Positions 25,133 through 42,035 of a stretch of 64,000 bases of DNA are shown piece after piece (positions within the stretch are counted from its first letter, which is position 1; each line of letters starts with the position of its first letter). Both the position numbers and the translations under genes were made by a program. The notes below the pieces were generated by a model that searched no databases, was not told the DNA's origin, and saw nothing but the letters and a program-made list of their open reading frames with translations. Source of the stretch: Patescibacteria group bacterium (GTDB lineage: Bacteria > Patescibacteriota > Microgenomatia > UBA10105 > UBA927); NCBI GenBank assembly GCA_035510735.1, contig DATKGN010000004.1, positions 7,436-71,435 on the forward strand, read 5' to 3'.

Positions 25133-25780
25133 TTATTGATTGATATACCGAATGACCACGCTGGTGGCATCGCTAACGCCCCGTTGTGCCAGCCAGCTAA
25201 GAAAATTCGTTTTGTTTTGATCGTATGGTTGTGAAAGCATGACCGTGTAGACATCACTGTCATATGAATAATTAACAGCAAAACCCGGCAGTGTTATCGG
25301 TACGCTTTTACGGATATTTTCCAGTGCGGCCCCCTGCGTAGCATACTTTTGTTGATTATTTTGTTCTATCTGATTGAACATCGTGTTCCATCCCGGCGCG
25401 TTATCTATCGCCTGTTGCGTGGTGAACCTTAATATATATGGAGGATTAGTGCTCACGGAAACAGCATATTGGGTTTCCGGCAGGAACATTGATATCGGCT
25501 TGATCTGGATAGAGCTACTTGTGATGCTTATGATGGAAACGTCTGTTGTCGGAGTCACGACGACGGAATATTCTTTTGGTGTGGGGGGGCGATTGAACAC
25601 GATCGTCACGGGTAAAAAGGGGTTGTACGAGGTTCCTTCGGAAGGTGTACTGCTAATGACGGCCAACGGAACGACGGCGGGCGGACGCAATAAAATGTAT
25701 AAAACAATACCCACAACAACAACCAGACTAAATAATACAAGAAGAAGGCGCTGTCTGACAAATTCCAAAAGATTTTTCAT
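25133..25780 (-). CDS. Hypothetical single-pass membrane protein, the last gene of the T4SS-like operon
   Basis: An N-terminal TM helix (LLLVLFSLVVVVGIVLYILL) and a Ser/Thr/Pro-rich extracytoplasmic domain. There is a 4-nt overlap with the upstream gene. Confidence 0.5.
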   Translation of the reverse strand: MKNLLEFVRQRLLLVLFSLVVVVGIVLYILLRPPAVVPLAVISSTPSEGTSYNPFLPVTIVFNRPPTPKEYSVVVTPTTDVSIISITSSSIQIKPISMFLPETQYAVSVSTNPPYILRFTTQQAIDNAPGWNTMFNQIEQNNQQKYATQGAALENIRKSVPITLPGFAVNYSYDSDVYTVMLSQPYDQNKTNFLSWLAQRGVSDATSVVIRYINQ

Positions 25781-28212
25781 TGTGCGGCCCCCTTATTATT
25801 TACGACAAGCCAAATGTTGTCTATATGGTAGTCATAATTAGAAGTTGCCGCGGCGCAGGAATCAACCAAATGGAGCGTTGTGGTCTGTTCCGGGCGGGCA
25901 GGATCGAGTGCGGTTACATCGTTGGTTCCTTTTTGAACGCCGACGATTGCCACAATGTGTCCCGACGGACCGGAATTCGTAAATTTTTCACACCCGCTTG
26001 CGTACACGACGCGCGTACAATCCTGCGGCCGGGATGGGTCGGGTGGCGCATCAAATATACTCTCGAGCTCGTTCGGGTTCATGTGTGTAACACTAAGCCC
26101 TGCGGTCGTCAGGACACCGAAGGATTTGTCATTATCGGTTAGGCAGCTTGGGGCCTCACCCGGCTGAGTGTAAAGATATCCGCCAACCTTATGCTGCTGA
26201 ATCCAGACGTCTACAACCGTGTGTTGTAGGCCAAAACCATTTAGTATCTCCGTCATCGTGGCGCTTCCACACCCCGACGGTCCGATGGCACAGGCGGTGT
26301 TTGGGGCGGTACAGACGCCAACATTGGGGTCAGGGTTTACCGCCGCGCACGTAATACCGCTCCACGCGGAATCGTACTGATATATGTGGGCGTTTGTAAA
26401 ATTCGGACAGATCAACGTAACCTGCGGGGAAGCGCCTTCAACTCCTCCCAAATCTGCCGGGATAAAATTCATCTGATTCGCCTTGTTTTGTGCGGCCGCC
26501 GTCGACCAGAGGAGCACTGCTACGCCGATGGCCAATAGGGGAGCAAGGTATAACGGATTATCATACCACTCTCTTTTTGGCGCGGGTGCGGACAGATAGC
26601 TCTGGATAAGTTCGCCAATTCCGCGGCTTGCAGCGGCCACCCCGCGGTTTGCGCCGGTTGCGACCCAGTTGCCGACCGCGGCGAGCGCCCCCTTTATTTT
26701 ATCCCAGAAGGCGGTTGCAATAAAAACAGCCCACCCCAGGGGGCCTGATAGCCACTCTGCTGCGGCCGCAGGCAAAAATGTACTTAAAAATTTGAGCGCC
26801 GCTCCCTGGGCCGCTTCGCGCGTAAACGTGCCAACAGTCCCGCCCGCCGCCGTTTCGGCAGCAGCCGCGCCGCCGCCCGCCGCTTTATTTACCCCCAGGC
26901 CCACGAGCCAATCCAAAGGAGAAGCTCCCGCCGGAAAAAGCTCCGGATGCCGGCCGTAGGCGACAGAAGCTGCAATCTTGTTTGGATTAAAGTCGGGACT
27001 CGGCTGAAACGTCTGAAGCTCTATGTAATCATACATTTCTTTATTTGAAACTCCGAACCCGGAGAATCCGCTAAATATATTGCTAATGCCACCGCCCCGG
27101 CGCTCTGAAAACTGCTTGTTTCCCTCCATCACCAGAGAATCAAGCGCCTCTTTGTTGACGCCCCGACGGGTCATTTCTTCGACAAATCCCTCGGCTTTTG
27201 TTGCGCCCTCCCAGGTCCTTGCAACAACGTCAGTTATGGTTGTCTGGGTAACGCCGGGGAACACCGTTCTCGCAGCATCAACGAAGGCGCTGTTCATTCG
27301 CGCAATCGGCTGTTTTATAAAACTTTCGGGCGCATTTACGACCGTTGCCATGCGCGACAACCGGATTGCGTCCTCCGCTTTGTCTCCACGCGCAATGGAT
27401 TCAAAAATAATATTAGGGGTAGTTATTTCCGGATTTTTAGCGACGACGTCGATGGATTGAGCAATAGCTGCGAAATCGCGGTCGAGGCCCGTCTCTTCGC
27501 AATATTCGGCAGCCGCACGCTGCGCTTCCTGCTCGTTGGCCGCACCCGTCTTTTGCAGTCGTCTTGATATTTCTGCGCGGGCTTCGTCTGGTGTTAATTG
27601 TGTGAAAGGTTTGTCGATTTCCCGCTTTGCCGCTTCTAATTCTTCCTTCGTTCCGTAGACTTTTTTCTCCTCCAGAATTTTAAAGAACCTCACGACCTTT
27701 GTGTCCGTTTTTTGACGTATTTGTTGAACCGTTGATATCGTCTCCTCCCATGCTTTATCCCGGACCGCACCGCTAACAACCTCAATGGGCGTGCTTTGAT
27801 CAAGTTTTTCGTCGGCTTGTTTAAATTGTGTAAGGTTGCCGGCTCCCTCGGGAACGGGCTCCACTGCAGCGACAAGCTCCGGGCTGTTTGAAACAAGACC
27901 TTTTATGTCAACCACCGCCTCGACGGGCGACTCTGACACCAGCTTCACGACGAATTCAGGGTGGGCGGAAAAATATGCGCGATATTCTTTGTATCCTTCA
28001 GCTTGCCGCAAAAACTCTTTGACCGTGATTCCTTCACCTTTCGTGACGGCATTGTTGTCATTTATCTTGCCCAGGATTTCTTTTGAGAACGCTAAGGCAG
28101 ACTGTTCTTTTGTCTTCTTCGCCCGAGAGTTGGCGGTGTTAACCGTTTGATTTTCTGCCTCCTTGGAAAAAGCATTCGGGGATAGTGTTGTTGCATCAGC
28201 ATCTGTTGCCAT
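25777..28212 (-). CDS. T4SS-associated bitopic protein. It has an N-terminal charged cytoplasmic domain, one TM helix, and a C-terminal papain-like (C39/CHAP-like) Cys/His domain that is a cell-wall hydrolase candidate.
   Basis: 811 aa. The TM helix is LYLAPLLAIGVAVLLWSTAAAQ near residue 540. The C-terminus has SGCGSATMTEILNGFG (Cys nucleophile context) and a downstream SGHIVAIVGVQ (His context). This resembles the peptidoglycan hydrolases of Gram-positive conjugation systems such as PrgK CHAP. The domain assignment is inferred. Confidence 0.5.
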   Translation of the reverse strand: MATDADATTLSPNAFSKEAENQTVNTANSRAKKTKEQSALAFSKEILGKINDNNAVTKGEGITVKEFLRQAEGYKEYRAYFSAHPEFVVKLVSESPVEAVVDIKGLVSNSPELVAAVEPVPEGAGNLTQFKQADEKLDQSTPIEVVSGAVRDKAWEETISTVQQIRQKTDTKVVRFFKILEEKKVYGTKEELEAAKREIDKPFTQLTPDEARAEISRRLQKTGAANEQEAQRAAAEYCEETGLDRDFAAIAQSIDVVAKNPEITTPNIIFESIARGDKAEDAIRLSRMATVVNAPESFIKQPIARMNSAFVDAARTVFPGVTQTTITDVVARTWEGATKAEGFVEEMTRRGVNKEALDSLVMEGNKQFSERRGGGISNIFSGFSGFGVSNKEMYDYIELQTFQPSPDFNPNKIAASVAYGRHPELFPAGASPLDWLVGLGVNKAAGGGAAAAETAAGGTVGTFTREAAQGAALKFLSTFLPAAAAEWLSGPLGWAVFIATAFWDKIKGALAAVGNWVATGANRGVAAASRGIGELIQSYLSAPAPKREWYDNPLYLAPLLAIGVAVLLWSTAAAQNKANQMNFIPADLGGVEGASPQVTLICPNFTNAHIYQYDSAWSGITCAAVNPDPNVGVCTAPNTACAIGPSGCGSATMTEILNGFGLQHTVVDVWIQQHKVGGYLYTQPGEAPSCLTDNDKSFGVLTTAGLSVTHMNPNELESIFDAPPDPSRPQDCTRVVYASGCEKFTNSGPSGHIVAIVGVQKGTNDVTALDPARPEQTTTLHLVDSCAAATSNYDYHIDNIWLVVNNKGAAQ

Positions 28213-28218
28213 GGCGGT

Positions 28219-30174
28219 TTACTCTGTGTCGTTTACCGTTTCTATTGTAAATATCGGACGGTTTGCATTGGGCGTAGTCGCTACAGGCGGGTTTAAGGGC
28301 GGTGACTGTGTCACAGATGTCACCGGTGGTGACGATGTGGCCACCGATGGGTGCGCCTCAACGATCGGCGATTCTGCCTCCTTTTGTTTTCTCATTGCTT
28401 CGAGATCCTGCGGTTTTGTAGTAATAAGTGCATGTTCCTGCGGCGAGGATATGACCCGCATGGCGGCGTGTGACGGCCCCGCGAAAAACAACCCCTCGCC
28501 GACATTTGACGCCAGGAGCAGGTGCTTCTCTCCTTCGGAAAGGAAAAATATTTCCGCAATCCGGTCGATGGCGGCGGAGGATTGTTTGAGGAGTATTTGT
28601 AAACTGCTGTTTTGTATGATGGTTTTCCCGAGATCGACGGACAAGAAATCTTCGACATCCTGTGTAATCGTCGTTAGTCCCAGGTAGTATTTTCTGGCCC
28701 GCTTTGCAATTGAATTTAAGAACGCGCCTGAGTCAGGATATTTCATCATGTACCACGCCTCATCAACAATGAGAATCCGCCGTTTTGTATTGCGCCGAAC
28801 CTTCGTCCATATAAAATCCAATATGAGATACATAGCGATGGGCCGGAGTTCGTCCTCAAGATCGCGGATGGAAAACACGGTTAACTGATTCCGTATTTCT
28901 ACGTTTGTCTGCTGGTCAAATATTCCGACGAGGCTTCCTTTAACGAATTTTTCAATTCGGTCGGCAAGCCCCCTTGCCGTGACGTCTTCCATGCCGACGA
29001 GCGTTTTATAGAGGTCTTCCATGAGCGGCGGTTCTTTGGCTTGGGTTTCAGGATCAGGCGTAATACCTTTTTGTTTATAGGCAAGGATAAGCGCGCGATC
29101 GAGGAGGGCGTCCTCTGACGGCGTGAGCTTCCCCATGACGACGCGGAAAAAACCGTGGAGCGAAAGTATTTTTTGATTGAGCTCGCTGTCTTCCTGGATT
29201 ACTCCTTTTTGGTGGAGAAGGGCAAGGTCAAAAGGGTTTATTTTTGTCGCGGCTCCGAAGTGAAAGCGGATGTATTCGCCGCCCAAGGCATGGGTCAGCG
29301 TCTCATACTCATTCTCGGGATCGATCACGATAACCTCGGTGTCAAACATCAGGCTCCGCAGTATTTCAAGCTTTACCATGTAGCTTTTTCCTGATCCTGA
29401 TTTCCCAAATACGACGGTATTTGCGTTTTCAAGCGTAAACCGGTCAAAGATGATCAAGCTGTCATTATGTTCATTGATGCCGTAGAGAATTCCTTCGTTG
29501 GCGGTAAGCTCCGACGTGGTAAACGGAAACGTTGTTGCAAGCGAGGTCGTATCCATATTGCGCGTGATAACAAGGCGGTCTTGACCCATCGGAAGCGTAG
29601 TTTTCAGGCCCTCCTCCATTTGGAGCGTTGCACGTTTCGTGACGATGAGGAGGGAGGCGAGCGTTGCCTCCACCTGTTTTGATGTTTTATTGAGATCCTC
29701 AAGAGATCGCGCGGGGATGGTCACGTAAAGACCGAATTGAAAAAACCTTTGGGCGCCTTTGGCAAGTTCCTGTTGAAGCGAGAGAGCGTCCTCAAGCGCC
29801 ACCTGGACGGACGGTTCAATCACCCGCCCGCGCTTCATATCCGATTGAATGGTGGCCTCCATCTCGCCGACTTTCCGCTTCAGGTTCTCCAGCACCTCTT
29901 CGCTCCGCGTCGGATACACAAACATAGAAATTTCAAGCGTATGGTTAAATGAAATGAGCGGTTCAAGCCAATTGGCGCTTACGAACCGTGGGTATCCGGC
30001 GACAAACAGCGTGCGGTAAAAGTAGGTACCGATCTTTAGGAAATCAAAATCGACTTCAATTGCGGGCGGAGCGATAATATCTTTTACCGAGAGCGGCGTA
30101 TTTGAGTCTCCCGGCTTCAGGTCGTCGCTCGGCATCGGATCAAGAATTTTTTTAAGAACGGGCGGGATGTCCAT
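28219..30174 (-). CDS. virB4: VirB4/TrbE/CagE-family T4SS ATPase (C-terminal ATPase portion)
   Basis: Walker A is VVFGKSGSGKSYMVKLEILRS. Walker B is RRILIVDEAWYMM. The surrounding VirB4 blocks EVIVIDPENEYETLTHALGGEYIRF and ITQDVEDF are present. Confidence 0.85.
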   Translation of the reverse strand: MDIPPVLKKILDPMPSDDLKPGDSNTPLSVKDIIAPPAIEVDFDFLKIGTYFYRTLFVAGYPRFVSANWLEPLISFNHTLEISMFVYPTRSEEVLENLKRKVGEMEATIQSDMKRGRVIEPSVQVALEDALSLQQELAKGAQRFFQFGLYVTIPARSLEDLNKTSKQVEATLASLLIVTKRATLQMEEGLKTTLPMGQDRLVITRNMDTTSLATTFPFTTSELTANEGILYGINEHNDSLIIFDRFTLENANTVVFGKSGSGKSYMVKLEILRSLMFDTEVIVIDPENEYETLTHALGGEYIRFHFGAATKINPFDLALLHQKGVIQEDSELNQKILSLHGFFRVVMGKLTPSEDALLDRALILAYKQKGITPDPETQAKEPPLMEDLYKTLVGMEDVTARGLADRIEKFVKGSLVGIFDQQTNVEIRNQLTVFSIRDLEDELRPIAMYLILDFIWTKVRRNTKRRILIVDEAWYMMKYPDSGAFLNSIAKRARKYYLGLTTITQDVEDFLSVDLGKTIIQNSSLQILLKQSSAAIDRIAEIFFLSEGEKHLLLASNVGEGLFFAGPSHAAMRVISSPQEHALITTKPQDLEAMRKQKEAESPIVEAHPSVATSSPPVTSVTQSPPLNPPVATTPNANRPIFTIETVNDTE

Positions 30175-30179
30175 ATGAA

Positions 30180-30839
30180 TTATTGTTCTGCCACCGCCTT
30201 TTGTATGGTCTCTGTGTCAGGGGGCGGAACCCCGGGATTATATGCTGTAAAAAACAACCGAACGAGCTGTTCATTGTCCAACTGATGTGCGCGTAGGCCG
30301 ACACGGCTTAACAGCCGTATTATTTGATCGCGCTTGGGATTAAGGACGATAAGCGCCTTTTCATATATATAGGATCTTGGGTACGGCAAGCCCCGTTTTT
30401 TGCTTCCGAATAACACGCTCGGCGAGCTTCCGAGCTCAAGACTCGAAAACGGGAGGACGATGAAAAAGTTTTTATCCAACACATCCTTTTCCTTCACGGT
30501 TGCCGCGACGAACAAACGGTAATCATGAATGCTTTTGGTGAGTTTTGGGTTTTTCTCCTTCCGTTCCTGATCTTCAAGAAGTCTGAGGTACGCTGTGACA
30601 TCTTTGTGTTGCGTCCTGATCATGAGTTGGATGGGGAATGACAAGGAATTTAAAAGTCCCGCGTACGCAGAGATCATGGCATCCTGCTCTTTTTCCGATA
30701 GCAGGCCGAAGTTTACCGCCGTTGTTGTCACGACCATCGCACACGATCCGTCGGCAAACATGATGATATCATGATCGACGGCTTCGATTTCGGTAAATAT
30801 CTGTGATGATGATTTAATAGGAACAATCGGTGGGTTCAT
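30180..30839 (-). CDS. VirB4 N-terminal-domain-like protein (CagE_TrbE_VirB-type), separated from the ATPase ORF
   Basis: IIMFADGSCAMVVTTTAVNFGLLSEKEQDAMISAYAGLLNSLSFPIQLMIRTQ matches the conserved VirB4/TrbE N-terminus (DGS..a...G.d......e....l...l.....). It ends 5 nt before the ATPase ORF and in a different frame. Confidence 0.55.
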   Translation of the reverse strand: MNPPIVPIKSSSQIFTEIEAVDHDIIMFADGSCAMVVTTTAVNFGLLSEKEQDAMISAYAGLLNSLSFPIQLMIRTQHKDVTAYLRLLEDQERKEKNPKLTKSIHDYRLFVAATVKEKDVLDKNFFIVLPFSSLELGSSPSVLFGSKKRGLPYPRSYIYEKALIVLNPKRDQIIRLLSRVGLRAHQLDNEQLVRLFFTAYNPGVPPPDTETIQKAVAEQ

Positions 30840-32254
30840 GGTGTCGGTTTTCCAAAAATTTCTTTTTCAAGCTTTTCCCGGTTTACCTGTTTTTGGCTTT
30901 TTGCGATAATCTCGAGAGCCGGCACGATAGAGCCATTGAGCGTGATCTGCACGCGGTCAAAGATATATCGGACTCTCGGGTCCTCGATCTCGACGAAGTA
31001 GACGCCGTTTGCCAGGGGCGTTGACGCAGCAAACTGGCCAAGCCGGTTTGTTTTTAGCGCCCGGAGAGGGACTCCCTCTTTATCTTTTACTGTGACAAGT
31101 ACTCCGGGAAGGAATATGTTGTCACCGTCTTTAATAATCCCCGTGACGATATTCGGAAACGATGTGAGTCTGGGGAGGCCGACCCTCACCGCGCTTTCTG
31201 GGGTTATAATTTTTACCGTCGGCTGTCTTGTTACATTTGGAGAAGCCACATGTGTTCCCGATTGGCTTTGCACAACTGGCGCCGGTTTGGGCACTATGGG
31301 TGGTGGTGTAGTCGCGAGCGGATTGGCTGCCGCCTGACGCCGAAGCGCGGTCAGCTCCCGCTCCATGGTTTCGCGTTCTCCAAGCAACTCTGTTAACTGT
31401 TTTTGGAGTTCTAATACGCGCGCCTCGGTCATGGATGAGCTTGCAAGATCTTTTTTAAGCAATACAACCTGCTGTTCCAGCGCTTCTTCTTTTTGTTTGG
31501 TTTGTTCGATAGCTTCTGGAGTTGGCTTTGGCGTTGCAGGGCGGACAATCGGAGGAGGAGAAAAATCAATGTGTTTACCGGTTATCGATGGAATCGGATA
31601 GTTGGTGGTTGTAACGTTTGCATTCATCATTGTTGGTTTGGGAGTCGAAAACGTAAACAGGCCGGCGAGCCACCCCCACGCGGATTGTTTTGGATGGACC
31701 GTTACAATAGTCGGTTTCTGTGGTTGTGTCACGGGTCCCGGAGACGGTTGCGGAATTGTTTGCGTGTGGGCACCGGGAAACACGCTTTGTAAAATATCTG
31801 CTATCGGACGCGCTCCCTGTGTCGCGGTAGATGCGGCGACGCTTGAGGGGCGCTGCTGTGGAGATGGTTGTGGTTTCGCTGGTTGTATATGTTGAGCCCG
31901 CAGCACAGGTGGTGCGGGGGGTGCTGCCTGTTTGGCTGCCAATTGAGCAACGGGGGGAGCAGGCGTAACCCCTCGCGCCCATACGAATTGTGTGGGACTG
32001 TAGACGCTTTTAATAAACGACAACACCCAGATATCCATCGGACGTTCCTCGACGGGGACAAATGCGAACCCGACGCCGCCGATAGCAAAAACGGTAGTCA
32101 GGGGCCAGGTAAAAAAGAAAGGAAGCGGCAGTTTAAATGATATATATGCCAATATAGCGCCCCCGGCGAGATATCCGAACTGTTTAATCGTCATGTCGCC
32201 GATAAGGCGGAATTGAAATGTTGTGACGTTTTGAGGGACAGGATGCTGTTCCAT
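30836..32254 (-). CDS. PrgI/VirB3-like T4SS membrane protein fused to a Pro/Ala-rich low-complexity linker, a coiled coil and a C-terminal beta-sandwich (carboxypeptidase-regulatory/PEGA-like) domain
   Basis: The N-terminus is FQFRLIGDMTIKQFGYLAGGAILAYISF, with two TM helices and VPVEERPMDIWV, a PrgI-like pattern. Residues about 100-230 are P/A/Q-rich. The C-terminus is GVYFVEIEDPRVRYIFDRVQI. Confidence 0.45.
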   Translation of the reverse strand: MEQHPVPQNVTTFQFRLIGDMTIKQFGYLAGGAILAYISFKLPLPFFFTWPLTTVFAIGGVGFAFVPVEERPMDIWVLSFIKSVYSPTQFVWARGVTPAPPVAQLAAKQAAPPAPPVLRAQHIQPAKPQPSPQQRPSSVAASTATQGARPIADILQSVFPGAHTQTIPQPSPGPVTQPQKPTIVTVHPKQSAWGWLAGLFTFSTPKPTMMNANVTTTNYPIPSITGKHIDFSPPPIVRPATPKPTPEAIEQTKQKEEALEQQVVLLKKDLASSSMTEARVLELQKQLTELLGERETMERELTALRRQAAANPLATTPPPIVPKPAPVVQSQSGTHVASPNVTRQPTVKIITPESAVRVGLPRLTSFPNIVTGIIKDGDNIFLPGVLVTVKDKEGVPLRALKTNRLGQFAASTPLANGVYFVEIEDPRVRYIFDRVQITLNGSIVPALEIIAKSQKQVNREKLEKEIFGKPTP

Positions 32255-32395: not shown

Positions 32396-34585
32396 ATGGA
32401 TTCTCCGTTCGTATTATTGGAAATAAGGAATTCCAGGGATTCTGAAGAAACCCCCGCAGCAATGGAACAAATATTTGCTGCATTGGGCTCGGCGGGCGGT
32501 CACGGGGGATTATTAACAAGAATTTTTGGCCCTCGTCATGCGTCAAAATATCTTAGCTTTGAGATCGTTTCCGTTAACTCGAGAATCCATTTTTTTGTCG
32601 GCCTCCCAACATACATGCAAGCGTATGTGGAAAGCCAGCTTACTGCACACTACCCGAAGCTGCTCCTCACCGCCGCTCCCGATTACGCGCCGCATTTTTT
32701 CTCTCTTCCTCATGCGGCGGCACAGCTTGTCCTCACGAACTCCTATTATTATCCGCTTAAAACGTATAAAGACGCCAAAGACCTTGACGCGATGGCAAGT
32801 CTTCTCGGGCAGCTGGCGAAATTACCGGTCGGTGAAGCGGTTGCTATACAATTTCGCGCGGAACCGGCAGGGACGGGTTGGCAACAGGCAGCTTCAGCGG
32901 TTATCGCGCGCGGGGTGCCGGATGTGACATCGATAAACGGCCGCATGAAAGCCCATCCGCACGCACGACTCATAGAGACGAAAATATCGGAAGTCGGATT
33001 CACGACAGCTATCCGGATTGTTGCGGTTGGTGCTCAGGAGGCCCGCGCAAAAGAGCTCCTTAATTCCGTTGCCGGAACGTTTGGCGTGTTTACGCTCGGA
33101 GAGGGGAATGCATTGGCTATCGCCGAACCCGCATTTTGGCAAAAGAAGAAGCTGGAGCAGGGATTTGTTGAGCGAAGCGGGCGCGTGGCCCCACGGCATC
33201 AGGTCCTCAATGCGAGCGAACTTGCCTCGCTTTGGCACCCACCAGGGCTCACGCTTTCGATGATTAAAAATATTTCCTGGGGTGCACAGCTTACCGGAGA
33301 GGCACCGGAAAATCTTCCGGTAGCCACAGATGATGAAGAAGCCAAAAAGCGGATTAATTTCTTTGCCCGGACGGAACATAAAAATCGCACCGTTACCTTC
33401 GGGGTGCAGAAAGACGATCGGCGAAAGCACGTGTATATTGTCGGGAAAACCGGAACCGGCAAATCAACCATGATCGCCAATATGGCCATTAACGATATGA
33501 AAAACGGCGAAGGAGTTGCTGTTGTCGATCCGCATGGAGACCTTTGTGATATCCTTCTTGATTATGTGCCGTCCAATAGAATTAATGATGTTGCATACCT
33601 TGATCCGTCGGACATCGAATATCCGTTTCATCTTAACCCTCTTGAAGTAAAAAATACCGCATATCGCGAGCTTGTGTCCTCCGGCATCGTCTCTATTTTT
33701 TACAAACTGTATCACCTGAGCTGGGGGCCAAGATTGGAATACATTCTTAGGAATACAATTCTGACTCTTCTTAACGTGCCCGACAGTACGCTCCTGCAGG
33801 TTCCCGAGCTTCTAACGAATGAAAATTACCGGCTGAAAGTGGTGGGTTCGATGCAGGACCGGGTGCTCAAGAATTTCTGGATCAATGAATTTGCCAAAAT
33901 GAGCCCGCAGATGCGAAGTGAAGCGGTGTCGCCGATCCTTAACAAGGTTGGTCAGTTTCTTTCCTCCCAGACCATCCGGAATATTGTCGGAAGCCCCACG
34001 TCGACGGTCGATTTAGAGGATATGATGAACGAGGGGAAAATCGTCATTGTGAATTTGTCCCAAGGGAAGCTTGGTGAGGATAGTAGCGCGCTTTTGGGCG
34101 CCATGATTATCACGAAAATGCAGCTCGCCGCGATGAACCGGGTATATGTTGCCGAAAGCGAGCGGCGCGACTTCTACCTCTACGTCGATGAGTTCCAGAA
34201 TTTTGCGACGACCTCGTTTATTAAGATTCTTTCCGAAGCCCGTAAATACCGGCTCGATCTCACACTTGCCAACCAATATATCGGTCAAATTGATGAGGAT
34301 GTGCAAAAGGCGATATTCGGGAACGCCGGATCCATCGTTTCGTTCAGTGTCGGGGCGACCGATGCGCGGATCCTCGCTAAGGAATTCGGACTTAAGTACA
34401 AAGAGGAAGAATTGGTGGGCCTTGGTAATTATGAAGTAATCTGTAAACTTTCGATTGATAATCAGACAAGTAGCCCGTTCTCCGCCCACACGCTGCCACT
34501 TCCCAAGAGTAAAAATCAGAGTAGGGAAAAAGTGATACGCTCGTCTCGAGAGAGATACACCAAAAAGATAAATTCAAAATCCTAA
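32396..34585 (+). CDS. VirD4/TraG/TrwB-like type IV coupling-protein-family ATPase (DUF87/HerA-FtsK superfamily). It has a soluble N-terminal domain and no TM helices.
   Basis: Walker A is HVYIVGKTGTGKSTMIANMAI. VVDPHGDL is present. Walker B is DFYLYVDEFQNFATTSF. The C-terminal region is LTLANQYIGQIDEDVQKAIFGNAGSIVSF. The first roughly 330 aa are unrecognised and lack TM segments. Confidence 0.65.
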   Translation: MDSPFVLLEIRNSRDSEETPAAMEQIFAALGSAGGHGGLLTRIFGPRHASKYLSFEIVSVNSRIHFFVGLPTYMQAYVESQLTAHYPKLLLTAAPDYAPHFFSLPHAAAQLVLTNSYYYPLKTYKDAKDLDAMASLLGQLAKLPVGEAVAIQFRAEPAGTGWQQAASAVIARGVPDVTSINGRMKAHPHARLIETKISEVGFTTAIRIVAVGAQEARAKELLNSVAGTFGVFTLGEGNALAIAEPAFWQKKKLEQGFVERSGRVAPRHQVLNASELASLWHPPGLTLSMIKNISWGAQLTGEAPENLPVATDDEEAKKRINFFARTEHKNRTVTFGVQKDDRRKHVYIVGKTGTGKSTMIANMAINDMKNGEGVAVVDPHGDLCDILLDYVPSNRINDVAYLDPSDIEYPFHLNPLEVKNTAYRELVSSGIVSIFYKLYHLSWGPRLEYILRNTILTLLNVPDSTLLQVPELLTNENYRLKVVGSMQDRVLKNFWINEFAKMSPQMRSEAVSPILNKVGQFLSSQTIRNIVGSPTSTVDLEDMMNEGKIVIVNLSQGKLGEDSSALLGAMIITKMQLAAMNRVYVAESERRDFYLYVDEFQNFATTSFIKILSEARKYRLDLTLANQYIGQIDEDVQKAIFGNAGSIVSFSVGATDARILAKEFGLKYKEEELVGLGNYEVICKLSIDNQTSSPFSAHTLPLPKSKNQSREKVIRSSRERYTKKINSKS

Positions 34586-35054: not shown

Positions 35055-35615
35055 ATGAAAATAGCCCTTTTAGGCGGAAGTTTTAATCCACCGCACATAG
35101 GCCATCTGTTTATAGCACGGCAGGTACTGGATTTTACCGACACGGACGAAGTGTGGTTTTTGCCCAACTACGGCCAGAGCCCGCCGAAGCCGGTGGCAAC
35201 AGCAGAGGAGCGGCTGGCGATGACAAAGGTATTGAATTTGCCCAAGACCCGCATTTCCATGATAGAAATTGACAATAAACTCGACGGTGAAACCGTGCAT
35301 ATCCTCCCGTTTTTACCGAAGGAGCACACGTTTTCATTCATTATCGGTTCCGATCAGTTGCCGACGCTTCACCTATGGCTTGATTGGGAAAAACTCATTA
35401 CAACAATACCATTCTTAGTGTTTCCCCGATACGGCTACCCGAATGAGCCGCTCTACGGCGGGATGAAGGTCATAAACCACGAGCTATTAATCGGCAGCAA
35501 TATTTCCTCGACAAAGATTAGGGACCGGGTGGGCGAAGGCTTGCCTATCGACCAGTTTGTGCCGAAGGCAGTCGCCGAATATATCGACAGCCATAGTCTT
35601 TATAAGACCACTTAA
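35055..35615 (+). CDS. nadD: Nicotinate-nucleotide adenylyltransferase NadD
   Basis: MKIALLGGSFNPPHIGHLFIARQVLDFTDTDEVWFLPN (HxGH motif) and a C-terminal ISSTKIRDRV motif. The ORF starts at 35025. The start was placed at ATG 35055. Confidence 0.9.
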   Translation: MKIALLGGSFNPPHIGHLFIARQVLDFTDTDEVWFLPNYGQSPPKPVATAEERLAMTKVLNLPKTRISMIEIDNKLDGETVHILPFLPKEHTFSFIIGSDQLPTLHLWLDWEKLITTIPFLVFPRYGYPNEPLYGGMKVINHELLIGSNISSTKIRDRVGEGLPIDQFVPKAVAEYIDSHSLYKTT

Positions 35616-35650: not shown

Positions 35651-35896
35651 ATGCTCATGACTACGATATCCATTTCACAGCTTAAAATAAATCCATCATC
35701 TGTTATCGCTCAGGCGGTAGATTATCCTGTGGTGGTAGAAAACCGCAATAAAGTGCAGGCGTATCTTGTGGGAAAAACATTGTTTGAAAAAATTATTGCA
35801 CTTCTTGAAGAGAAAGAGGATGTGGCCGCTGTGAAAAACACTGATTTTTCTAAAGGCAGGAATTTCGATGATGTAGCCCAAGAGCTGGGGTTATGA
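35651..35896 (+). CDS. Type II antitoxin, Phd/YefM family
   Basis: 81 aa. The N-terminus is MTTISISQLKINPSSVIAQAVDYPVVVENRNKVQAYLV (Phd/YefM fold pattern), with an acidic C-terminal tail. The stop overlaps the toxin start (ATGA). The translated start is more likely ATG 35657. Confidence 0.65.
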   Translation: MLMTTISISQLKINPSSVIAQAVDYPVVVENRNKVQAYLVGKTLFEKIIALLEEKEDVAAVKNTDFSKGRNFDDVAQELGL

Positions 35897-36156
35897 ATAT
35901 TCTGATATCGCCTCGAGCGGAGAAAGAGCTCAAAAAGCTTCATAAATTTGATCAAATTGCCGTTGTTCAAAAAATACGCTCTCTTCGACTCTCAACGCCG
36001 CATGGAGAAGAACGGCTAACCGGATATCCACATATATTTCGTGTTCGCGTAGGAAATTATCGGATTGTATACCGTAAAACACGAGACGACATATATATCA
36101 TTCTCATCCGTCACCGGAAAGACGTCTATAAAAAGCTTACGGACCTGTTGGGATAG
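35893..36156 (+). CDS. Type II toxin, RelE/ParE family
   Basis: 87 aa. HIFRVRVGNYRIVYRKTRDDIYIILIRHRKDVY is the typical RelE/ParE C-terminal pattern. Confidence 0.75.
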   Translation: MNILISPRAEKELKKLHKFDQIAVVQKIRSLRLSTPHGEERLTGYPHIFRVRVGNYRIVYRKTRDDIYIILIRHRKDVYKKLTDLLG

Positions 36157-36228
36157 TTTTGACAAAACATAGCCGATTAGGTTCAGGCGTTGACGGTTGG
36201 GCTAACGCACTTTAGACTGGAATAGTGG

Positions 36229-36360
36229 TGGACAAATTATCGATTAACAATAATATTTCCTCGACAAAGATCAGGGAACGGGTGGGCCGCGGCCTCCCGA
36301 TTGACCAGTTTGTGCCGCCTGCGGTTGCGAAGTATATTCAAGAACACAAGCTTTATACAT
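36229..36360 (+). pseudogene. Orphan 3' fragment of a second nadD allele (about 44 codons, ending TAA)
   Basis: It translates as VDKLSINNNISSTKIRERVGRGLPIDQFVPPAVAKYIQEHKLYT*. This is about 75-80% nucleotide identity to nadD 35497-35615 (IGSNISSTKIRDRVGEGLPIDQFVPKAVAEYIDSHSLYKTT*). There is no 5' portion. Confidence 0.75.
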
Positions 36361-36428: not shown

Positions 36429-39400
36429 ATGCCTGAAGATACCAACGAAAAGACGCCGATATTGCTTCTGAAGAAATTGTTAGAGGGGAAGCAGCCGCCC
36501 CCGGATCGTGGTGCAGACGGCCCGTTAACGGTTAAAGGCGTCCAAAGCCGCGATTTTGCCAGGCGTGAACAAAATGCCAAGGAATTGAAAAGCACCCAAG
36601 AGAGCAAAGGACCAAAACCTGAAACAGGAGTGAAGCCAAAAACGGAAGCAATTTCGGATAAATATAAGGAAGAGTTGGTCCGGAGCGGAACGCCGCTAAC
36701 GATAGAAAAAAAACTACAGATCATTGAGCATGAAGTGCCGGAAGCAAAAACGCTGGCCCTCAAACGACAATTTGAAGAGTTAAAGAACGAAATCCGCAAT
36801 AATCCTCAGGGTCCGGATTCACGGGGGAGAATACAATCTATCGTAAAAGGTATTCAAACCGACGCGGCTGTGGACAAAGACCTCAATGAGGTGGCACAGG
36901 AGATTACGCAATCCACCTACAACCACATTATGCGGAATAAAGCATATATGGTGGGCATCTCAATAGACGACCGCGCGGAAATGGGCGTGACATTTATAGA
37001 CGCCAAGTCTTCTCGTATTTATGAAGACGAGAATTATTTGCGCGATATTGGAGAAAACATACTCCGTCGGCCGTTAACAGCAGCAGATATTCAGGCTGAG
37101 GTTCAGGTTTCGGAGGATTTGGTAAAACATCTCAATGCCGGAGGTGATGAGGCGGATGTGGATTTGGTCGTTAAAACCATGCGGCCGGTTGAAAAATTGG
37201 ATGAAAAGACCGCCCGACAAAAGATTGCGGAAGGGCCCAGGTGGGTGAAAGATGCGGCAAGTAAAATTACCCGCGATTCGTACGCATTATCATTCCTCGG
37301 CGAGATGTCTGATGTGTACAAAATGAATCCTGATTTAGTTGATGATCCCACAAAGCTTAACCCCGCGCTATTGTTCACCAAAGGCGTACAGCTCCGTGTG
37401 GATAACGGTGAATTTTATACGTCGCAGGGCGAGTCTTCTGATGTCATGGCGCAAATGCAGGAAGGCACTTCAGTTCGCGATACGGTGGTCGATCAAGTCA
37501 AGCTGGCCATTGAGGGCAGGCCGATGTTTACCAGCGACCGCTGGGATGAACATTTATATCTCATGAGCGAGCCTAAGGCGTTTGCATTGGGAGCAGGAGT
37601 GGATTATGAATGGGATTCGGCGGCAGAACCCGTTCGTGCCGGCGCCCTGAAGGACCGTCTTGACGAATTTAATTCTTACGTTCACTCTCTGACCGGGGAT
37701 GTCGACGAGCAGGTTTATAAACTATACGGCGATTTACATCATGATTATCGCGCTGACTTGACGCTTGTTCCGAATCTTGTCGATAGGCTCGCAAAAAGGA
37801 TAGATGAAGTATCCAAGCTAAACGCGGAAAGACATAAAGCATTCAGCAACCTTTACTTCGAATACGTCGACCAAATGCCGGTATATCGGAACCCGGCTCT
37901 CGCTCTTCGTGAGACGCAGGACTATTACAATGAGTTGTCCCGCTTATATCCAAACACGTTCCAGGAATCGGTTGAGCGGAACCGTCAAAACATGATTTCA
38001 TTTTTAAACAGCCCGCATTTCCAGGCAGACTGGAAAGCGTTTTTTGACGATGATAAAAATTGGGGTTTCATCAATGAGGGCTACGACCCTGCGTATAAAA
38101 TTACCGTTAGAGCCGATCTTGATAAGCACCCTATGTATAAAGTCCTTAAAGATAAAAATGAATGGGCAAAATACCGTGGACAACTCGTTGACTCGTTCAC
38201 ACAAGGGGATTTATTGCAGCGCGGCGTCACAACGTTTAAGACTTCCGAAATAGAAAAAATGAGAGGCATCAATGCGTCTATCGGTGAGAAAGGGCAGATT
38301 ATATTACGGCGGGACAGAGGGGGGATCAATAATCGGGCATATTTGATTATGGATCGAAAAGGAGAATTTTCCCGTTTTGACAACGACGGAGATGAAGCGG
38401 TAGCGAGCGGACCAAATTTGAAACGGGCGGTGAATAAGGCGAAGCACGAAATGAAGAAATATAAAGAACATTATTTGCCAAAATTAGCGAAAGTATACGG
38501 TCCGAATGTTGATTTTGACACCATGGTAGATGCCGCGGTCGACGAAATGTATTCGCAGCAGATTATTGAAACGCGTCGCGCTGAGTGGATGGAATGGGGG
38601 GCGCCGATTTGGAAAGTTGGAGGGCAAAAAGATAACCCATTCATGTTTGCCGGCTTGGGCCCTGAAGCTAACGTGTTGACTGCCTGGCGCCCAATTGATG
38701 AGCTAATGGAACGCTGGGGGACGATAAGCGCTTCCGGCCGCCACGTGATTGAAGAGGCCGCTAAGAGCGATGTGATGCGTCTGAGTATTGATAAATATGT
38801 CGACCCCGCGTTGGACAAAATTGATCTGCGCACCGCGAAAGGAAAACAGGATTTCCGGCGACTTGTAAAAAATTATTTAGGAATTGTTGAGCCCGAGACC
38901 TCACCTAGATACGCGGCTATTGAACAGCAACGTCTTGTGTTTTTTGAAATTGATGAGCACGGGATTGACCTGAAGGAGCAATTACGAAATCCGACGTCAA
39001 TAGATAAATTGACCAAGAAAGACCTCCGGCGGCTGATGACGTTCACTCTGGCGAAACGCGCCGCAACAGACAGGGAGGCAACCGGCGCGTACCGGTATCG
39101 TTCGGCGTCCTGGAATGCAGACACGATGATTCAGGTTATGGACAAAAAGTACACTGGGCATAACGAAGTTTTATTACAGGAACGACTGTCGCGAAAAGTT
39201 GCTGATTTGTTTAACCCCGAAATTTCACATGATAGTATTGAGAATGCACAGTTTACTCTCACACACATTGTCCCAGAAGATCCGACAAGCGGAATGCTCC
39301 TTAAATTAGGAGAGTATTCGCCCATGCACGCGGTCGATGCGCTACAGTCGGAGTGTGATATTGAAATATTGGAATTTATTAACCGGGAGATTCCTGCAGC

Positions 39401-40490
39401 AAACCATGCGTATCATGATCCTGAAGAAGCAGGTCTCAACGCTATCGGTCCTGGCAGGCGAGATCTTTTTATGGAGCGTTTTATCATGCGTCAAGATATG
39501 ATAAATGCCGATTGTGCGGAAGCAGGAGAAATGCCCTGGAATTTTTCAAAACCAATCGCGGCTCACACCCCAAGACAAATAGCTATTGCAGCTGAAATAT
39601 GTCGGATTACCCAAACGGATATGAACGAATTTTTTGCGCTCGGCGGACGTATTTCAGAGCATGTTTTAGAACCTGAAACATTAGAGTCTCTCTCAAATCC
39701 CGCGATCGCGCAGTATTTTTTAGTCGTTCACGATCAGGATCCACGATATATAGAGTTAGATGACGGGGTCCCCGGGGATCCTGAATTTCAATATTCCCTC
39801 CAAATTGCTAAAGATGATTACGCAGGGAACAATGGAATCTATCGCAACCTAAACGATACAGTAAATGCGGCAGGTGGCGTGGTAAAGGATTTTAAACCAA
39901 TGGTTGAGGCGGGTGATGAAAAGACATTTACAGGGCATCGTGAAGCGTTTTATGCGATGACAGAAATGGTCGGCGGCTACAATACGAAAGCAGTCAATAA
40001 TCTGAAATGGACGGCAGCATGGTACGGGATGGTACGGATGGATTACGGGAAGGACATTGTGGGTATGAAGGGGGAACATCCATTTTTCCCCATGTCTGAT
40101 CACCAACGAATAGTGGGTATAGGCGGATTAGCCCTGCCTCTTGAGAAGGTGGATCTTGCATGGCATGCTGCGGACGTTGCAACAGGCGGAAAATTTCATA
40201 AATTATTTCCGCATTTAACTCATGTAACCATGAAACGATTGAACCTCATCGCCGCCGAGATTGGTTGGCCTAATTTTTTACAGGATTTTGGCAAAGCTAT
40301 TACGAAAAGGACTGGATGGAGGGGAGTAGAACGACTATTTCATCACAAATTTGAAATTCAGACCGTTTGGGTCCCGCGCGCAGTGGCATTGGCCGGTTTG
40401 GCCGTGTTATTATGGGGAACTCAAACTTGGAGTAATTTGAAAAAGGGATTTTCCGGGAACTCCTCACACGCACAACCGGAACACGGTTAA
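36429..40490 (+). CDS. Giant hypothetical protein (1353 aa) embedded in the T4SS cluster. It is mostly hydrophilic and helical, with one C-terminal TM helix.
   Basis: It is an uninterrupted 4.06-kb ORF. The N-terminus is charged and K/E-rich. There are no recognisable NTPase, relaxase (HUH) or peptidase motifs. The C-terminal TM helix is AVALAGLAVLLWGTQTW. It sits between the virD4-like and virB6-like genes. Confidence 0.6.
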   Translation: MPEDTNEKTPILLLKKLLEGKQPPPDRGADGPLTVKGVQSRDFARREQNAKELKSTQESKGPKPETGVKPKTEAISDKYKEELVRSGTPLTIEKKLQIIEHEVPEAKTLALKRQFEELKNEIRNNPQGPDSRGRIQSIVKGIQTDAAVDKDLNEVAQEITQSTYNHIMRNKAYMVGISIDDRAEMGVTFIDAKSSRIYEDENYLRDIGENILRRPLTAADIQAEVQVSEDLVKHLNAGGDEADVDLVVKTMRPVEKLDEKTARQKIAEGPRWVKDAASKITRDSYALSFLGEMSDVYKMNPDLVDDPTKLNPALLFTKGVQLRVDNGEFYTSQGESSDVMAQMQEGTSVRDTVVDQVKLAIEGRPMFTSDRWDEHLYLMSEPKAFALGAGVDYEWDSAAEPVRAGALKDRLDEFNSYVHSLTGDVDEQVYKLYGDLHHDYRADLTLVPNLVDRLAKRIDEVSKLNAERHKAFSNLYFEYVDQMPVYRNPALALRETQDYYNELSRLYPNTFQESVERNRQNMISFLNSPHFQADWKAFFDDDKNWGFINEGYDPAYKITVRADLDKHPMYKVLKDKNEWAKYRGQLVDSFTQGDLLQRGVTTFKTSEIEKMRGINASIGEKGQIILRRDRGGINNRAYLIMDRKGEFSRFDNDGDEAVASGPNLKRAVNKAKHEMKKYKEHYLPKLAKVYGPNVDFDTMVDAAVDEMYSQQIIETRRAEWMEWGAPIWKVGGQKDNPFMFAGLGPEANVLTAWRPIDELMERWGTISASGRHVIEEAAKSDVMRLSIDKYVDPALDKIDLRTAKGKQDFRRLVKNYLGIVEPETSPRYAAIEQQRLVFFEIDEHGIDLKEQLRNPTSIDKLTKKDLRRLMTFTLAKRAATDREATGAYRYRSASWNADTMIQVMDKKYTGHNEVLLQERLSRKVADLFNPEISHDSIENAQFTLTHIVPEDPTSGMLLKLGEYSPMHAVDALQSECDIEILEFINREIPAANHAYHDPEEAGLNAIGPGRRDLFMERFIMRQDMINADCAEAGEMPWNFSKPIAAHTPRQIAIAAEICRITQTDMNEFFALGGRISEHVLEPETLESLSNPAIAQYFLVVHDQDPRYIELDDGVPGDPEFQYSLQIAKDDYAGNNGIYRNLNDTVNAAGGVVKDFKPMVEAGDEKTFTGHREAFYAMTEMVGGYNTKAVNNLKWTAAWYGMVRMDYGKDIVGMKGEHPFFPMSDHQRIVGIGGLALPLEKVDLAWHAADVATGGKFHKLFPHLTHVTMKRLNLIAAEIGWPNFLQDFGKAITKRTGWRGVERLFHHKFEIQTVWVPRAVALAGLAVLLWGTQTWSNLKKGFSGNSSHAQPEHG

Positions 40491-40493
40491 CGA

Positions 40494-42035
40494 CTATTCT
40501 CCACCCCCACCATGCGAAGGAGGGCTTTTTTGGCCGGTTACGCGGTCCCATATCTGACTTGGCCAGAGAGACTTGATGTAATATGCCATTGATAGTGTTT
40601 GCAATGCTCCTCCTCCTGCCCCTCCCGTGTCGAACATTGGCATAACGGACTTTGCCTTGAGCGCTTCTTTGACCGAGCCTGCAACAGAGGGTATGGCAAA
40701 TAAGATGCCAAGCGAGATGAGTGCGCCGATTGCCGTTGTGTTACTTACAATACTCGTGTACGGCGGTACCCAAAGGTTTGTTGGTCCTCCTGAAATGCCG
40801 CCGTTTGAGAAATTAGCAAATACGGAGGAGAGCATAAACATAGCGCCTCCGATAGGGAAAACCGCGAGATTTGCTGCAAGATTTTTAATCCACGATGAGA
40901 ACGAATTAGATCCTGGGAGCGCCTCCATGAGTAATTGGAGTGGCGCCAATAGCAGCGAGATAATTATCTGGATATAAGAAGTAAGGAAGAATCCAAGCAA
41001 TCGAAGAAAGAGGAATAGTATAACGATGGCTAAAATTAAATGGACGAGCGGTAACCCGAGTCCGGCGAGACCTATCACGACTCCGGCTCCGCCTATCGGC
41101 GTGCCCGCGCCGGCAATGGCAGCTATTCCGCCGATAACTGCGCCTATAGAAGACACCATGAGGGCGGTACCGGAATTTACATTATAGCCCAAAAATTTAA
41201 GCGGGTTTATATCCACGTTGAAAAACTGTGCTCCAATGCCGCCCTGGCCGTAGAGCGCGTCATTTGTCGTAATATGATATATGCTTTGCACCTGCGCGCT
41301 CGGCGCCGGCAGATAATTTGGAATTGATTTAAAAATGGCAACGATAAAGAAAATAAGAAGATACATGATATCAATCATAAATCCGACGATTGCATAGGAA
41401 AATGTGATGAGGATAAGCGCGATGATGACACGGGGGATTGCATTTTGTGCCGTGACGACGGTTTTGGGATCAATTTTTTTCCTGAGCATGATCATAAACC
41501 CGAGAACGATCATGACAAGCGCCATAAGGAGGTAGGCGATATTCCGGAACGCTTTCCAGATGGGAAGAAGGGGTTCGAGGCCGCTGAATCCAATCCCTTG
41601 TGCATACGCCTGATCGGGGATAAATCCGAGAGAATGACCCATATCGGCTAAAAACAAACCGGAGTCGGCGGGTTTCGTTGTATACATGTCAGCAATAACG
41701 CCGCCAAGTTGCATTGCCGTGCTTCCGTTAAGGCACGTGGTAAAGTCTGTTTGTGTTTTTGCACCCGATATACAGACTGACTTGTCGATCATATCAGCGA
41801 TGTCATACGCGTTATTGGTGTTTTGGAAATGGACGGTTGATTCGGAATTAATCGAAGCCGTTCCATACACCGCGGCATTGGTATCTTGTGTAGTCGGGAA
41901 TTTCCAGGAATTAATGAGATTGGTGATAGCTGTAATCGGGTTTGCCGGGGCCGGTTGAGCAAAAACGACGCTTTTGGGTGCAAGAAATGCGAGCGAACAG
42001 AGAAGAATAAAAAACACGAGCAGACGTTTTAGCAT
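40494..42035 (-). CDS. VirB6/TrbL-like polytopic T4SS membrane protein with an N-terminal secreted domain
   Basis: It has a signal peptide (MLKRLLVFFILLCSLAFLAPKSVVFA) and an extracytoplasmic domain of about 150 aa. Six or more TM helices (LMALVMIVLGFMIMLRKK...IIALILITFSYAIVGFMIDIMYLLIFFIVAIF...) have interspersed Gly-rich loops. It lies immediately adjacent to the VirB2-like pilin array. Confidence 0.55.
   Translation of the reverse strand: MLKRLLVFFILLCSLAFLAPKSVVFAQPAPANPITAITNLINSWKFPTTQDTNAAVYGTASINSESTVHFQNTNNAYDIADMIDKSVCISGAKTQTDFTTCLNGSTAMQLGGVIADMYTTKPADSGLFLADMGHSLGFIPDQAYAQGIGFSGLEPLLPIWKAFRNIAYLLMALVMIVLGFMIMLRKKIDPKTVVTAQNAIPRVIIALILITFSYAIVGFMIDIMYLLIFFIVAIFKSIPNYLPAPSAQVQSIYHITTNDALYGQGGIGAQFFNVDINPLKFLGYNVNSGTALMVSSIGAVIGGIAAIAGAGTPIGGAGVVIGLAGLGLPLVHLILAIVILFLFLRLLGFFLTSYIQIIISLLLAPLQLLMEALPGSNSFSSWIKNLAANLAVFPIGGAMFMLSSVFANFSNGGISGGPTNLWVPPYTSIVSNTTAIGALISLGILFAIPSVAGSVKEALKAKSVMPMFDTGGAGGGALQTLSMAYYIKSLWPSQIWDRVTGQKSPPSHGGGGE

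Follow-up and report, generated by a model that had tools for sequence, protein, structure and literature searches.

Within the 64,000-nucleotide stretch of Patescibacteria group bacterium DNA analysed here (the window; contig DATKGN010000004.1), a single open reading frame (ORF) on the forward strand, with an ATG start at position 36429 and running to 40490, encodes a protein of 1353 amino acids (aa) that we call BIG as a working name, a giant and by prediction all-alpha protein of an unannotated, hyper-divergent family. BIG is a real gene under purifying selection, a fixed member of the Microgenomatia locus that encodes a type IV secretion system (T4SS), with an unusual conserved architecture, and the most frequently replaced element of that locus, constrained within its allele classes. 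From these sequence-based observations we tentatively read BIG as a VirD4/T4SS-handled, tail-anchored substrate that would end at the interface between epibiont and host and serve there as an exchangeable specificity module, a reading that we prefer while judging it somewhat short of probable. For BIG, T4SS dependence, export, membrane insertion and host contact are all things that we infer.

A preliminary description of this DNA, made from the letters alone, had remarked on one uninterrupted 4-kb frame, on the hydrophilic and helical character of its product and on the lack of any NTPase, relaxase, peptidase or adhesin signature, and these statements hold. Lys, Glu, Asp and Arg make up 6.9, 7.8, 7.8 and 6.1% of BIG and Cys 0.2%, no internal repeats were found, and Pfam, NCBIfam, PHROGs and PADLOC return 0 matches; PDB sequences gave no match with either the single sequence or a profile. 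The AlphaFold (AF2) model is all-alpha, with about 70 helices (pLDDT 79, pTM 0.68), and Foldseek searches of PDB and BFVD with it gave no significant fold neighbour, the best and non-significant matches (TM ~0.1) being alpha-solenoid or tape-measure-like. A word-indexed search of 5.8 billion protein clusters with the whole of BIG returned 0 matches, not even BIG itself, a metagenome scan with N-terminal BIG patterns gave no matches, and the only match to the N-terminal domain was P0002, a fragment of the closest relative, L001. An exhaustive phmmer search (query aa 120-1319) of 1.84 billion (1.84e9) representative proteins, on the other hand, found 17 distant relatives, most of them 1220-1433 aa long and 23-35% identical, and a scan of GTDB found one full-length relative, L001, at 45% identity. 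Because Logan and ENA contigs contain identical BIG genes, and because exhaustive searching does find 17 relatives, word-indexed negatives are unreliable for proteins of this type; the family escapes routine annotation entirely, and word-indexed searching of protein sets in the billions as well. Several samples of peat and permafrost type contain the window sequence letter for letter.

Starting from the 14 first relatives, an iterated profile settled after four rounds on 46 members, every one of them a positional orthologue, and Pfam has no match to any of 14 family members. BIG is accordingly neither the orphan nor the lineage-specific protein that it had first seemed; it is a positional family conserved across Microgenomatia, represented in public genomes by an unnamed hypothetical protein, undescribed in the papers that dissect Patescibacteria T4SS loci and with no mention found in the literature. 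A metagenome scan with a VirD4 alignment added 80 more loci, and in nearly every locus in which VirD4 is at least ~65% identical and enough downstream DNA is present, the largest downstream ORF is 980-1450 aa long and is followed by a convergent polytopic gene. The order of the locus is VirB4, TraC-like and PrgI-like genes, then VirD4, a four-helix-bundle gene, nadD, cargo and BIG, then the convergent VirB6-like gene and the pilins; it is the same in L001, P0004 (L012), P0001 and P0017 (L015), with the four-helix-bundle gene present in most loci. Synteny around BIG is seen in L001, L012, the P0001 contig, L015, about 30 loci among L019-L093, L096 and L098, where L096 (a Gottesmanbacteria-type contig) and L098 (a 1.07-Mb NCBI genome contig) carry profile-positive orthologues, and related loci are also met on contigs of 1.07-1.17 Mb and in 0.1-µm groundwater fractions. 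No BIG-like ORF lies within 10 kb where VirD4 is 59-60% identical or less (L073, L075, L078, L081-L086, L088, L095).

The suggestion that BIG is a T4SS component or a secreted or surface substrate had been coupled to two refuting conditions, homology to a common housekeeping protein and absence from the T4SS neighbourhood of relatives. Neither is borne out: no housekeeping or SMC-like homology appeared, and BIG is at the same place in all examined loci that are sufficiently close (VirD4 at least ~65% identical) and have enough flanking DNA, which together make the suggestion plausible. It is strengthened by the turnover of BIG alleles uncoupled from their neighbours, and is tempered by the positive-inside rule, which favours a cytoplasmic bulk, both described below.

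Two loci deserve comment in their own right. On L097 (Ca. Blackburnbacteria, GCA_016198465.1) a 1214-aa gene at 1630-5274 on the reverse strand is convergent with a VirB6-like gene and has the same design of N-terminal helix, linker and C-terminal helix plus tail, and the 46-member profile is blind to it; the BIG family is therefore wider than sequence methods show. L001 (CAYLQG010000035.1) is labelled 'uncultured Gammaproteobacteria bacterium', a label that is probably wrong, as its gene content (a monoderm-type T4SS, PF18895 pilins and synteny with Gottesmanbacteria-type contigs) points to Patescibacteria/Microgenomatia.

The architecture of BIG is simple to state from one end to the other. 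A short amphipathic helix at aa 9-20, TPILLLKKLLEG (36453..36488, + strand), stands at the N-terminus and is not a Sec-type signal peptide; a similar helix within the first ~10-40 residues is present in most of 44 family N-termini, the sequences being unrelated and a few of the ORF calls carrying spurious upstream extensions. A Pro/Lys/Glu-rich linker follows (aa ~21-75, 36489..36653, +), probably disordered to judge by the composition of 100-aa blocks, and a linker of the same kind is seen in other members. Both belong to an N-terminal module (aa 1 to ~390, 36429..37598, +) that is conserved with L001 (81% aa identity, ratio of nonsynonymous to synonymous divergence dN/dS 0.08), and the helical body as a whole spans ~1200 aa. 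Only 22 alignment columns reach 70% conservation in the family, and the best-conserved polar motif is R1139-x3-D1143 (39843..39857, +; consensus R-x-x-G-D), kept in 93-95% of the 46 members. Neither BIG nor any of 44 full-length members has a signal peptide or a hydrophobic segment outside the C-terminus, and Cys is scarce throughout the family, at 0.18% as against 0.57% in other ORFs of the same loci.

The C-terminus carries a Gly/Ala-rich hydrophobic helix at aa 1318-1337, AVALAGLAVLLWGTQTWSNL (40380..40439, +), Gly-zipper-like and preceded by basic and aromatic residues (WVPR). Of the single C-terminal transmembrane helix proposed in the preliminary description, the single hydrophobic segment stands and its membrane-spanning nature is borderline: no 19-residue Kyte-Doolittle window scores above 1.69 (aa 1310-1328), the family median for the best window is 1.52, and only 20 of the 44 members reach 1.6. 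Across the family the uncharged run is 7-23 residues long (typically 12-23, mean 16.6) and is preceded by basic plus aromatic residues, the mean net charge being +1.9 before the helix and -0.4 after it. Beyond the helix lies a polar, Gly-rich tail with a His near its end, KKGFSGNSSHAQPEHG (40440..40487, +); the tail is ~16 residues long, polar and Gly-rich in the family, and the last residue is His in 25 of the 44 members.

Several familiar identities were tried for BIG and rejected. It is not a conjugative relaxase (HUH/MOB), for none of 14 members matches Pfam or NCBIfam and none of the 22 conserved columns holds an HUH motif, and not an SMC-like ATPase, for there is no P-loop or SMC match and the model is made of many short helices with no long coiled coil. 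A PrgB-type adhesin was discarded because BIG is without signal peptide, LPXTG, Pfam domains or internal repeats, and VirB6/TrbL because at least five transmembrane helices are needed where BIG has one hydrophobic segment and no Pfam TrbL match. Nor is BIG a polymorphic toxin: its variable part of ~950 aa is collinear and homologous throughout with no toxin domain, and the downstream gene, where an immunity gene would be expected, is VirB6-like in all loci.

That downstream gene (40494..42035, reverse strand) is convergent with BIG, lies 3 nt away and encodes a polytopic membrane protein of 513 aa with ~7-8 hydrophobic segments. Its AF2 model (44 sequences, pLDDT 77) has as its top 8 Foldseek matches in PDB only TrwI/VirB6 of R388 (E 0.046-1.4, the first two with probability 0.99-1.0), and Pfam TrbL appears only below threshold and in one orthologue, so that an identification as VirB6-like is reasonably supported by the modelled fold. 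The protein has 805 homologues, some of them from Ca. Gottesmanbacteria, Ca. Blackburnbacteria and 'Patescibacteria group' genomes, and the one adjoining BIG is short (460-550 aa). The placement of BIG between virD4 and virB6 in the preliminary description is thus right for the VirB6-like gene, which is adjacent, and needs correcting for VirD4, which lies 1.8 kb upstream with four unrelated genes intervening.

The VirB6-like family ends in a tail of the BIG kind (…GQKSPPSHGGGGE, …LTGGGGKKDAH). Defining the motif as a His in the last 5 residues with at least 2 Gly in the last 14, and comparing the C-termini of BIG and VirB6-like proteins of the window plus P0018-P0137, we find it in 68% of BIG members, 43% of 119 VirB6-like proteins and 5% of 661 other ORFs, where it occurs at structured nadD/YbeY-like ends, in a handful of assorted small ORFs and in a single membrane protein beside BIG in L031. 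None of the known sorting signals has the helix-then-motif order of this tail. The shared tail is a hint that the C-termini of BIG and the VirB6-like protein may reach the same place or bind the same partner.

The divergence of BIG is out of step with that of the genes around it. Between the window and L001 the neighbouring proteins are 80-96% identical and BIG 45%, and the difference resides in one part of the gene: aa 1-395 are 81% identical and aa 396 to the end 33%, with dN 0.116 in the N-terminal part and 0.715 in the C-terminal part. In the DNA this appears as a divergent cassette (37600..40550, +) in which identity to L001 drops from ~80% to ~45%, falling at about 37600 and recovering past the stop codon at about 40556, a span of 2.9 kb. 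A 59-nt run of perfect identity (37515..37573, +) sits at the junction of conserved and divergent DNA as a candidate crossover site; it ties for the third-longest identical run in 14 kb, despite saturated synonymous sites (dS ~1.3-1.4). The two parts of the gene also give incongruent relationships, L001 being 44% identical to P0001 and 81% to the window in the N-part, and 54% to P0001 and 33% to the window in the C-part. Sharp breakpoint, 59-nt block and incongruence together are what recombination within the gene, involving a distant allele, leaves behind.

The same disparity is seen across the family. Identity of BIG shows no positive correlation with identity of VirD4 (Spearman -0.12, 406 pairs), and 29 loci fall into 17 BIG classes at a 40% identity cut-off. 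Among L046, L047 and L092, VirD4 is 92-95% and pilin-2 94-95% identical, VirB4 93% (L047 and L092, the gene not being on L046) and nadD 82% (L047 and L092), and yet BIG is only 0-22% identical, with no BLASTP match for that of L046. Ranked from most to least variable between L047 and L092, BIG comes first, followed by the hydrolase-slot protein (52%), the VirB6-like protein (58%), the PrgI-like protein (70%), the pilins and finally the ATPases; the VirB6-like protein is 51-58% identical where the ATPases are 92-95% identical. Such a gradient, with BIG highest and the ATPases lowest, is the pattern expected for outward-facing parts. Within allele classes BIG is constrained, with dN/dS of 0.08 for the N-part between window and L001 and 0.06 between L044 and L074.

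Other ways of generating this diversity were looked for within the window. BIG is not a target of a diversity-generating retroelement, as neither tblastn nor blastn finds any part of BIG duplicated within these 64 kb and the divergence spans 2.9 kb; silent cassettes or partial copies are likewise absent from this stretch of the genome. Contig breaks at codon 416 in L005 and L006 might have indicated co-existing alleles, and this was rejected because the downstream contig from the same run, L102, has the same allele, all contigs of the strain are identical and another sample breaks elsewhere.

In the pathway that we favour, BIG would be a dedicated part, and the main exchangeable specificity module, of the chromosomal, monoderm-type (MPF-FATA-like) T4SS locus of Microgenomatia within the Patescibacteria, or candidate phyla radiation (CPR). 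Made without a Sec signal, BIG would be handled by VirD4 and the T4SS as a tail-anchored transmembrane substrate; its C-terminal helix may first associate with the VirB6-like channel protein, which bears the same tail, and may next anchor BIG in a membrane at the contact between epibiont and host, where a variable partner, in the host or on it, would be met by the helical body. Many ancient allele classes would be kept through frequency-dependent selection exerted by that partner, and they would be shuffled between lineages as the conserved flanks, and at times the gene itself, undergo homologous recombination. Given the lack of a Sec signal, the Cys-poor helical body, the C-terminal segment, the tail and the turnover, such a T4SS-substrate mechanism seems to us the most economical, and since allele-class diversity and recombinational shuffling are typical of a variable external partner, that partner would most simply be a host structure. 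BIG has a moderate C-terminal segment (aa 1318-1337, with 16 residues after it) and no Sec signal, and a moderate hydrophobic segment within the C-terminal ~65-70 residues is the criterion by which T4SS transmembrane effectors are recognized, a group that includes a two-step route through the donor membrane (PMC12981334). As to background, neither the function nor the substrates of the T4SS of Patescibacteria are known, adhesins and relaxases have not been found, and the system is essential in a Saccharibacterium (PMC12102498, PMC10633639, PMC11665869); the T4SS of presumed epibionts is considered to act on their host (PMC11665869, PMC10633639), and no PrgB-type adhesins were found in Patescibacteria (PMC12102498). 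The more specific proposal that BIG is a host-range cassette, a helical protein of new fold that would be exported and planted by its C-terminal helix in the host envelope as a contact or translocon element, is unlikely but has a real chance.

At the same time, a number of observations weigh against the substrate reading. From the charges flanking the helix, the positive-inside rule would place nearly all of the protein in the cytoplasm and ~16 residues outside, an arrangement that suits a resident tail-anchored protein equally well, and in many members the uncharged run is just 14 residues, short for a bilayer span. In one clade (L038/42/43/64/66/69), BIG matches VirB4 and DnaA in conservation (78-82%), and rapid change is therefore a matter of episodes and not general. 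The same clade has a variable VirD4, an imperfect yardstick; an argument that BIG, being more conserved there than VirD4, must have been transferred was dropped, as VirD4 is the outlier (VirB4 86-89%), and with VirD4 alone an unsafe yardstick no transfer of BIG is claimed for the clade. The genes nadD and nadE separate BIG from VirD4, leaving co-transcription with the T4SS genes unproven, and the coupling protein is reported to be non-essential in S. epibionticum.

The strongest competitor, a serious one that we judge less likely than not, is a resident scaffold, in which BIG would be a tail-anchored inner-membrane protein with its 1300-aa helical body in the epibiont cytoplasm at the base of the T4SS. 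There it would supply in trans the large hydrophilic helical domain that an extended VirB6 carries in cis and would dock VirD4, VirB4 or substrates, its variability tracking variable substrates or partner subunits. The missing signal peptide and the positive-inside charge pattern suit such a protein, as do the convergent adjacency to a short (460-550 aa) VirB6-like gene with the common C-terminal tail and a Gly-zipper-like anchor helix fit for packing on other transmembrane helices. S. epibionticum offers a parallel in SEML1_0011 and SEML1_0013, essential VirB6-like proteins of ~1000-1090 aa whose C-terminal helical domains are ARM-repeat-like, and a giant gene apart from these is not listed for it; the top, non-significant fold matches of BIG are alpha-solenoids, and its conservation in the L038 clade would also be in keeping with a machine part. 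Nonetheless, cytoplasmic machine parts rarely diverge beyond detection while the ATPases that they bind stay 92-95% identical, BIG class does not co-vary with VirD4 or the VirB6-like protein, and the domain order is opposite to that of extended VirB6, with the soluble part of BIG before the membrane segment.

We think it very unlikely that BIG is a determinant of self and non-self or of exclusion, a polymorphic identity protein like IdsD/IdsE or TraG-Eex that the T4SS would present or deliver to neighbours, so that kin are spared or redundant contacts prevented. Many discrete, anciently diverged allele classes, kept and exchanged between lineages, are what such a protein would show, a membrane-anchoring helix lies near the C-terminus, and the adjacent polytopic protein is variable (51-58% where the ATPases are 92-95%) and could be a cognate partner. 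However, that neighbour resembles the VirB6 channel subunit and not a dedicated partner, its similarity is not obviously coupled to BIG class, and there is no evidence of these bacteria targeting each other.

Slightly less credible again is a role for BIG unrelated to secretion, for example as a tail-anchored cytoplasmic protein tethering envelope or cytoskeleton, encoded by chance of position in a conserved origin-proximal block. Housekeeping genes (nadD, nadE) and toxin-antitoxin cargo are indeed interleaved with the block, the region lies by dnaA/dnaN with a mevalonate operon downstream and in conserved order, and no direct functional link between BIG and the T4SS has been shown. But BIG occurs only in T4SS loci with an adjacent VirB6-like gene and pilin array and is missing at distant VirD4 loci, it has a rare C-terminal tail in common with the VirB6-like protein, and its allele turnover is like that of other outward-facing T4SS parts and unlike that of housekeeping genes. 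A chance ORF or decaying remnant, for which the lack of homology to anything annotated might speak, is refuted by conservation and constraint: the position and architecture are conserved, the 4-kb frame is intact in 40+ lineages at the same position, dN/dS is 0.06-0.08, the AF2 model is confident and the identical sequence comes from several independent samples.

Known systems resemble BIG in part. The extended VirB6 proteins (S. epibionticum SEML1_0011/0013, the F TraG C-terminal domain, the Rickettsia RvhB6 paralogues) contain a large, helical, poorly conserved module and are essential in Saccharibacteria; like these domains BIG is tied to the VirB6 channel subunit of a T4SS, a likeness of description rather than a demonstrated one of sequence or fold. 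Unlike them, BIG forms a polypeptide of its own, anchored once, at the C-terminus, with the soluble part first, and it is 2-3 times larger than the extended domains. In TraG of F and SXT a variable segment sets partner (exclusion) specificity. CagA and CagY of the Helicobacter pylori cag T4SS are locus-encoded proteins of >1000 aa tied to host interaction, CagA being largely helical with a novel fold and no membrane helix, and CagY owing its variability to recombination via internal repeats. Neither is homologous to BIG, and BIG is without internal repeats of the CagY type.

The role of the large extended VirB6 domains is itself unknown (PMC12857230). T4SS transmembrane effectors of Legionella, Coxiella and Rickettsia (PMC12981334) have, like BIG, no Sec signal, a coupling protein in the genome, a moderate segment in the last ~65 residues with a short tail, low Cys and a helical body. 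Those effectors belong to diderm pathogens of eukaryotes and are much smaller and scattered in the genome, whereas BIG is a fixed single-copy gene of the T4SS locus in a monoderm CPR bacterium, and its translocation is only predicted. Anaplasma, Bartonella and Patescibacteria also have T4SS-locus genes of unusual sequence diversity, their VirB2 pilin arrays and VirB6 paralogues, a diversity interpreted as adaptation to different host surfaces (PMC12102498). Pilins and VirB6-like proteins of the window type are variable too, less so than BIG; in the VirB2/VirB6 cases the diversity is one of paralogue arrays in one genome, while BIG is single-copy and its diversity lies between genomes, through allele replacement.

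The remainder of the locus is as expected for the group. Patescibacteria, and Microgenomatia especially, have a T4SS by dnaA with a VirB4 of MPF-FATA type, a pilin array and no relaxase (PMC12102498), and the window layout agrees, as it would for a CPR bacterium of Microgenomatia type. The VirD4-like coupling protein (T4CP; 32396..34585, +) is 96% identical in L001. Between it and BIG lie the non-T4SS genes for a four-helix-bundle protein (34610-34987, +) and nadD (35025-35615, +), and then Phd (35651-35896, +) and ParE (35893-36156, +) in a variable cargo slot. On the reverse strand, the five other genes of the T4SS block (25133..32254) encode a 215-aa exported protein, an 811-aa protein (25777-28212) in the position of a hydrolase slot in relatives, VirB4 (28219-30174), a 219-aa TraC-like protein and a 472-aa PrgI/VirB3-like protein (30836-32254), with dnaN and dnaA beyond the gene of the exported protein. 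Past the VirB6-like gene, five VirB2-like T4SS pilin genes (PF18895; 42075..44398, reverse strand) form a tandem, divergent array, and a sixth ORF that overlaps it (42991-43419) likewise ends in a pilin-like C-terminus; individual pilins are 61-95% identical between close relatives. A scan for promoters and terminators gave nothing above chance.

Local replacement extends to other segments of the window. The slot between nadD and BIG is a hot spot for cargo, Phd/ParE here and PaaX_M, AbiEii, HicAB with AAA_14/DUF4143, an HTH protein or nadE elsewhere. The toxin-antitoxin module with the region upstream of BIG (35651-36262) is 93-97% identical to L001 between flanks of 80-85%, with identical runs of 94 and 67 nt, which suggests recent exchange. 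The region of the four-helix-bundle gene (of the type found in 23S rRNA intervening sequences) has 45-49% DNA identity to L001, which has no equivalent ORF, and the gene is 86% identical in the more distant L015, pointing to another locally replaced segment. The 811-aa slot is swapped as well: the counterparts in L012 and L047 encode Peptidase_M23 proteins, and the window protein has no detectable similarity to that of L047 and only a faint Peptidase_C39_2 hint in its Cys-containing C-terminal domain. The T4SS block is flanked on one side by dnaA/dnaN (22453-25120) and on the other (44424-53378) by an extracytoplasmic function (ECF)-type sigma factor, a Yip1-domain protein and a complete mevalonate-pathway operon (HMG-CoA reductase, HMG-CoA synthase, thiolase and three GHMP kinases/decarboxylase, one fused to NUDIX), an arrangement kept in L012, L098 and the P0001 contig. 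A standard one-piece tmRNA (60250-60652, +; 129 bits) and two tRNA genes (62128-62359, reverse strand) lie further along.

Patescibacteria T4SS are widespread, chromosomal and essential in the one species tested, yet what they carry, what they do and what host specificity rests on are unknown (PMC12102498, PMC11665869, PMC12857230). In this setting BIG, a previously undescribed giant gene of the Microgenomatia T4SS locus, provides a concrete candidate for a host-facing or specificity factor, and its allele classes, recombination breakpoints and tail motif common with the VirB6-like protein offer a comparative handle. If the host-range reading is true, no substrate or specificity factor of any CPR T4SS would have been identified before BIG, and its allele class would set which host an ultra-small bacterium can exploit.

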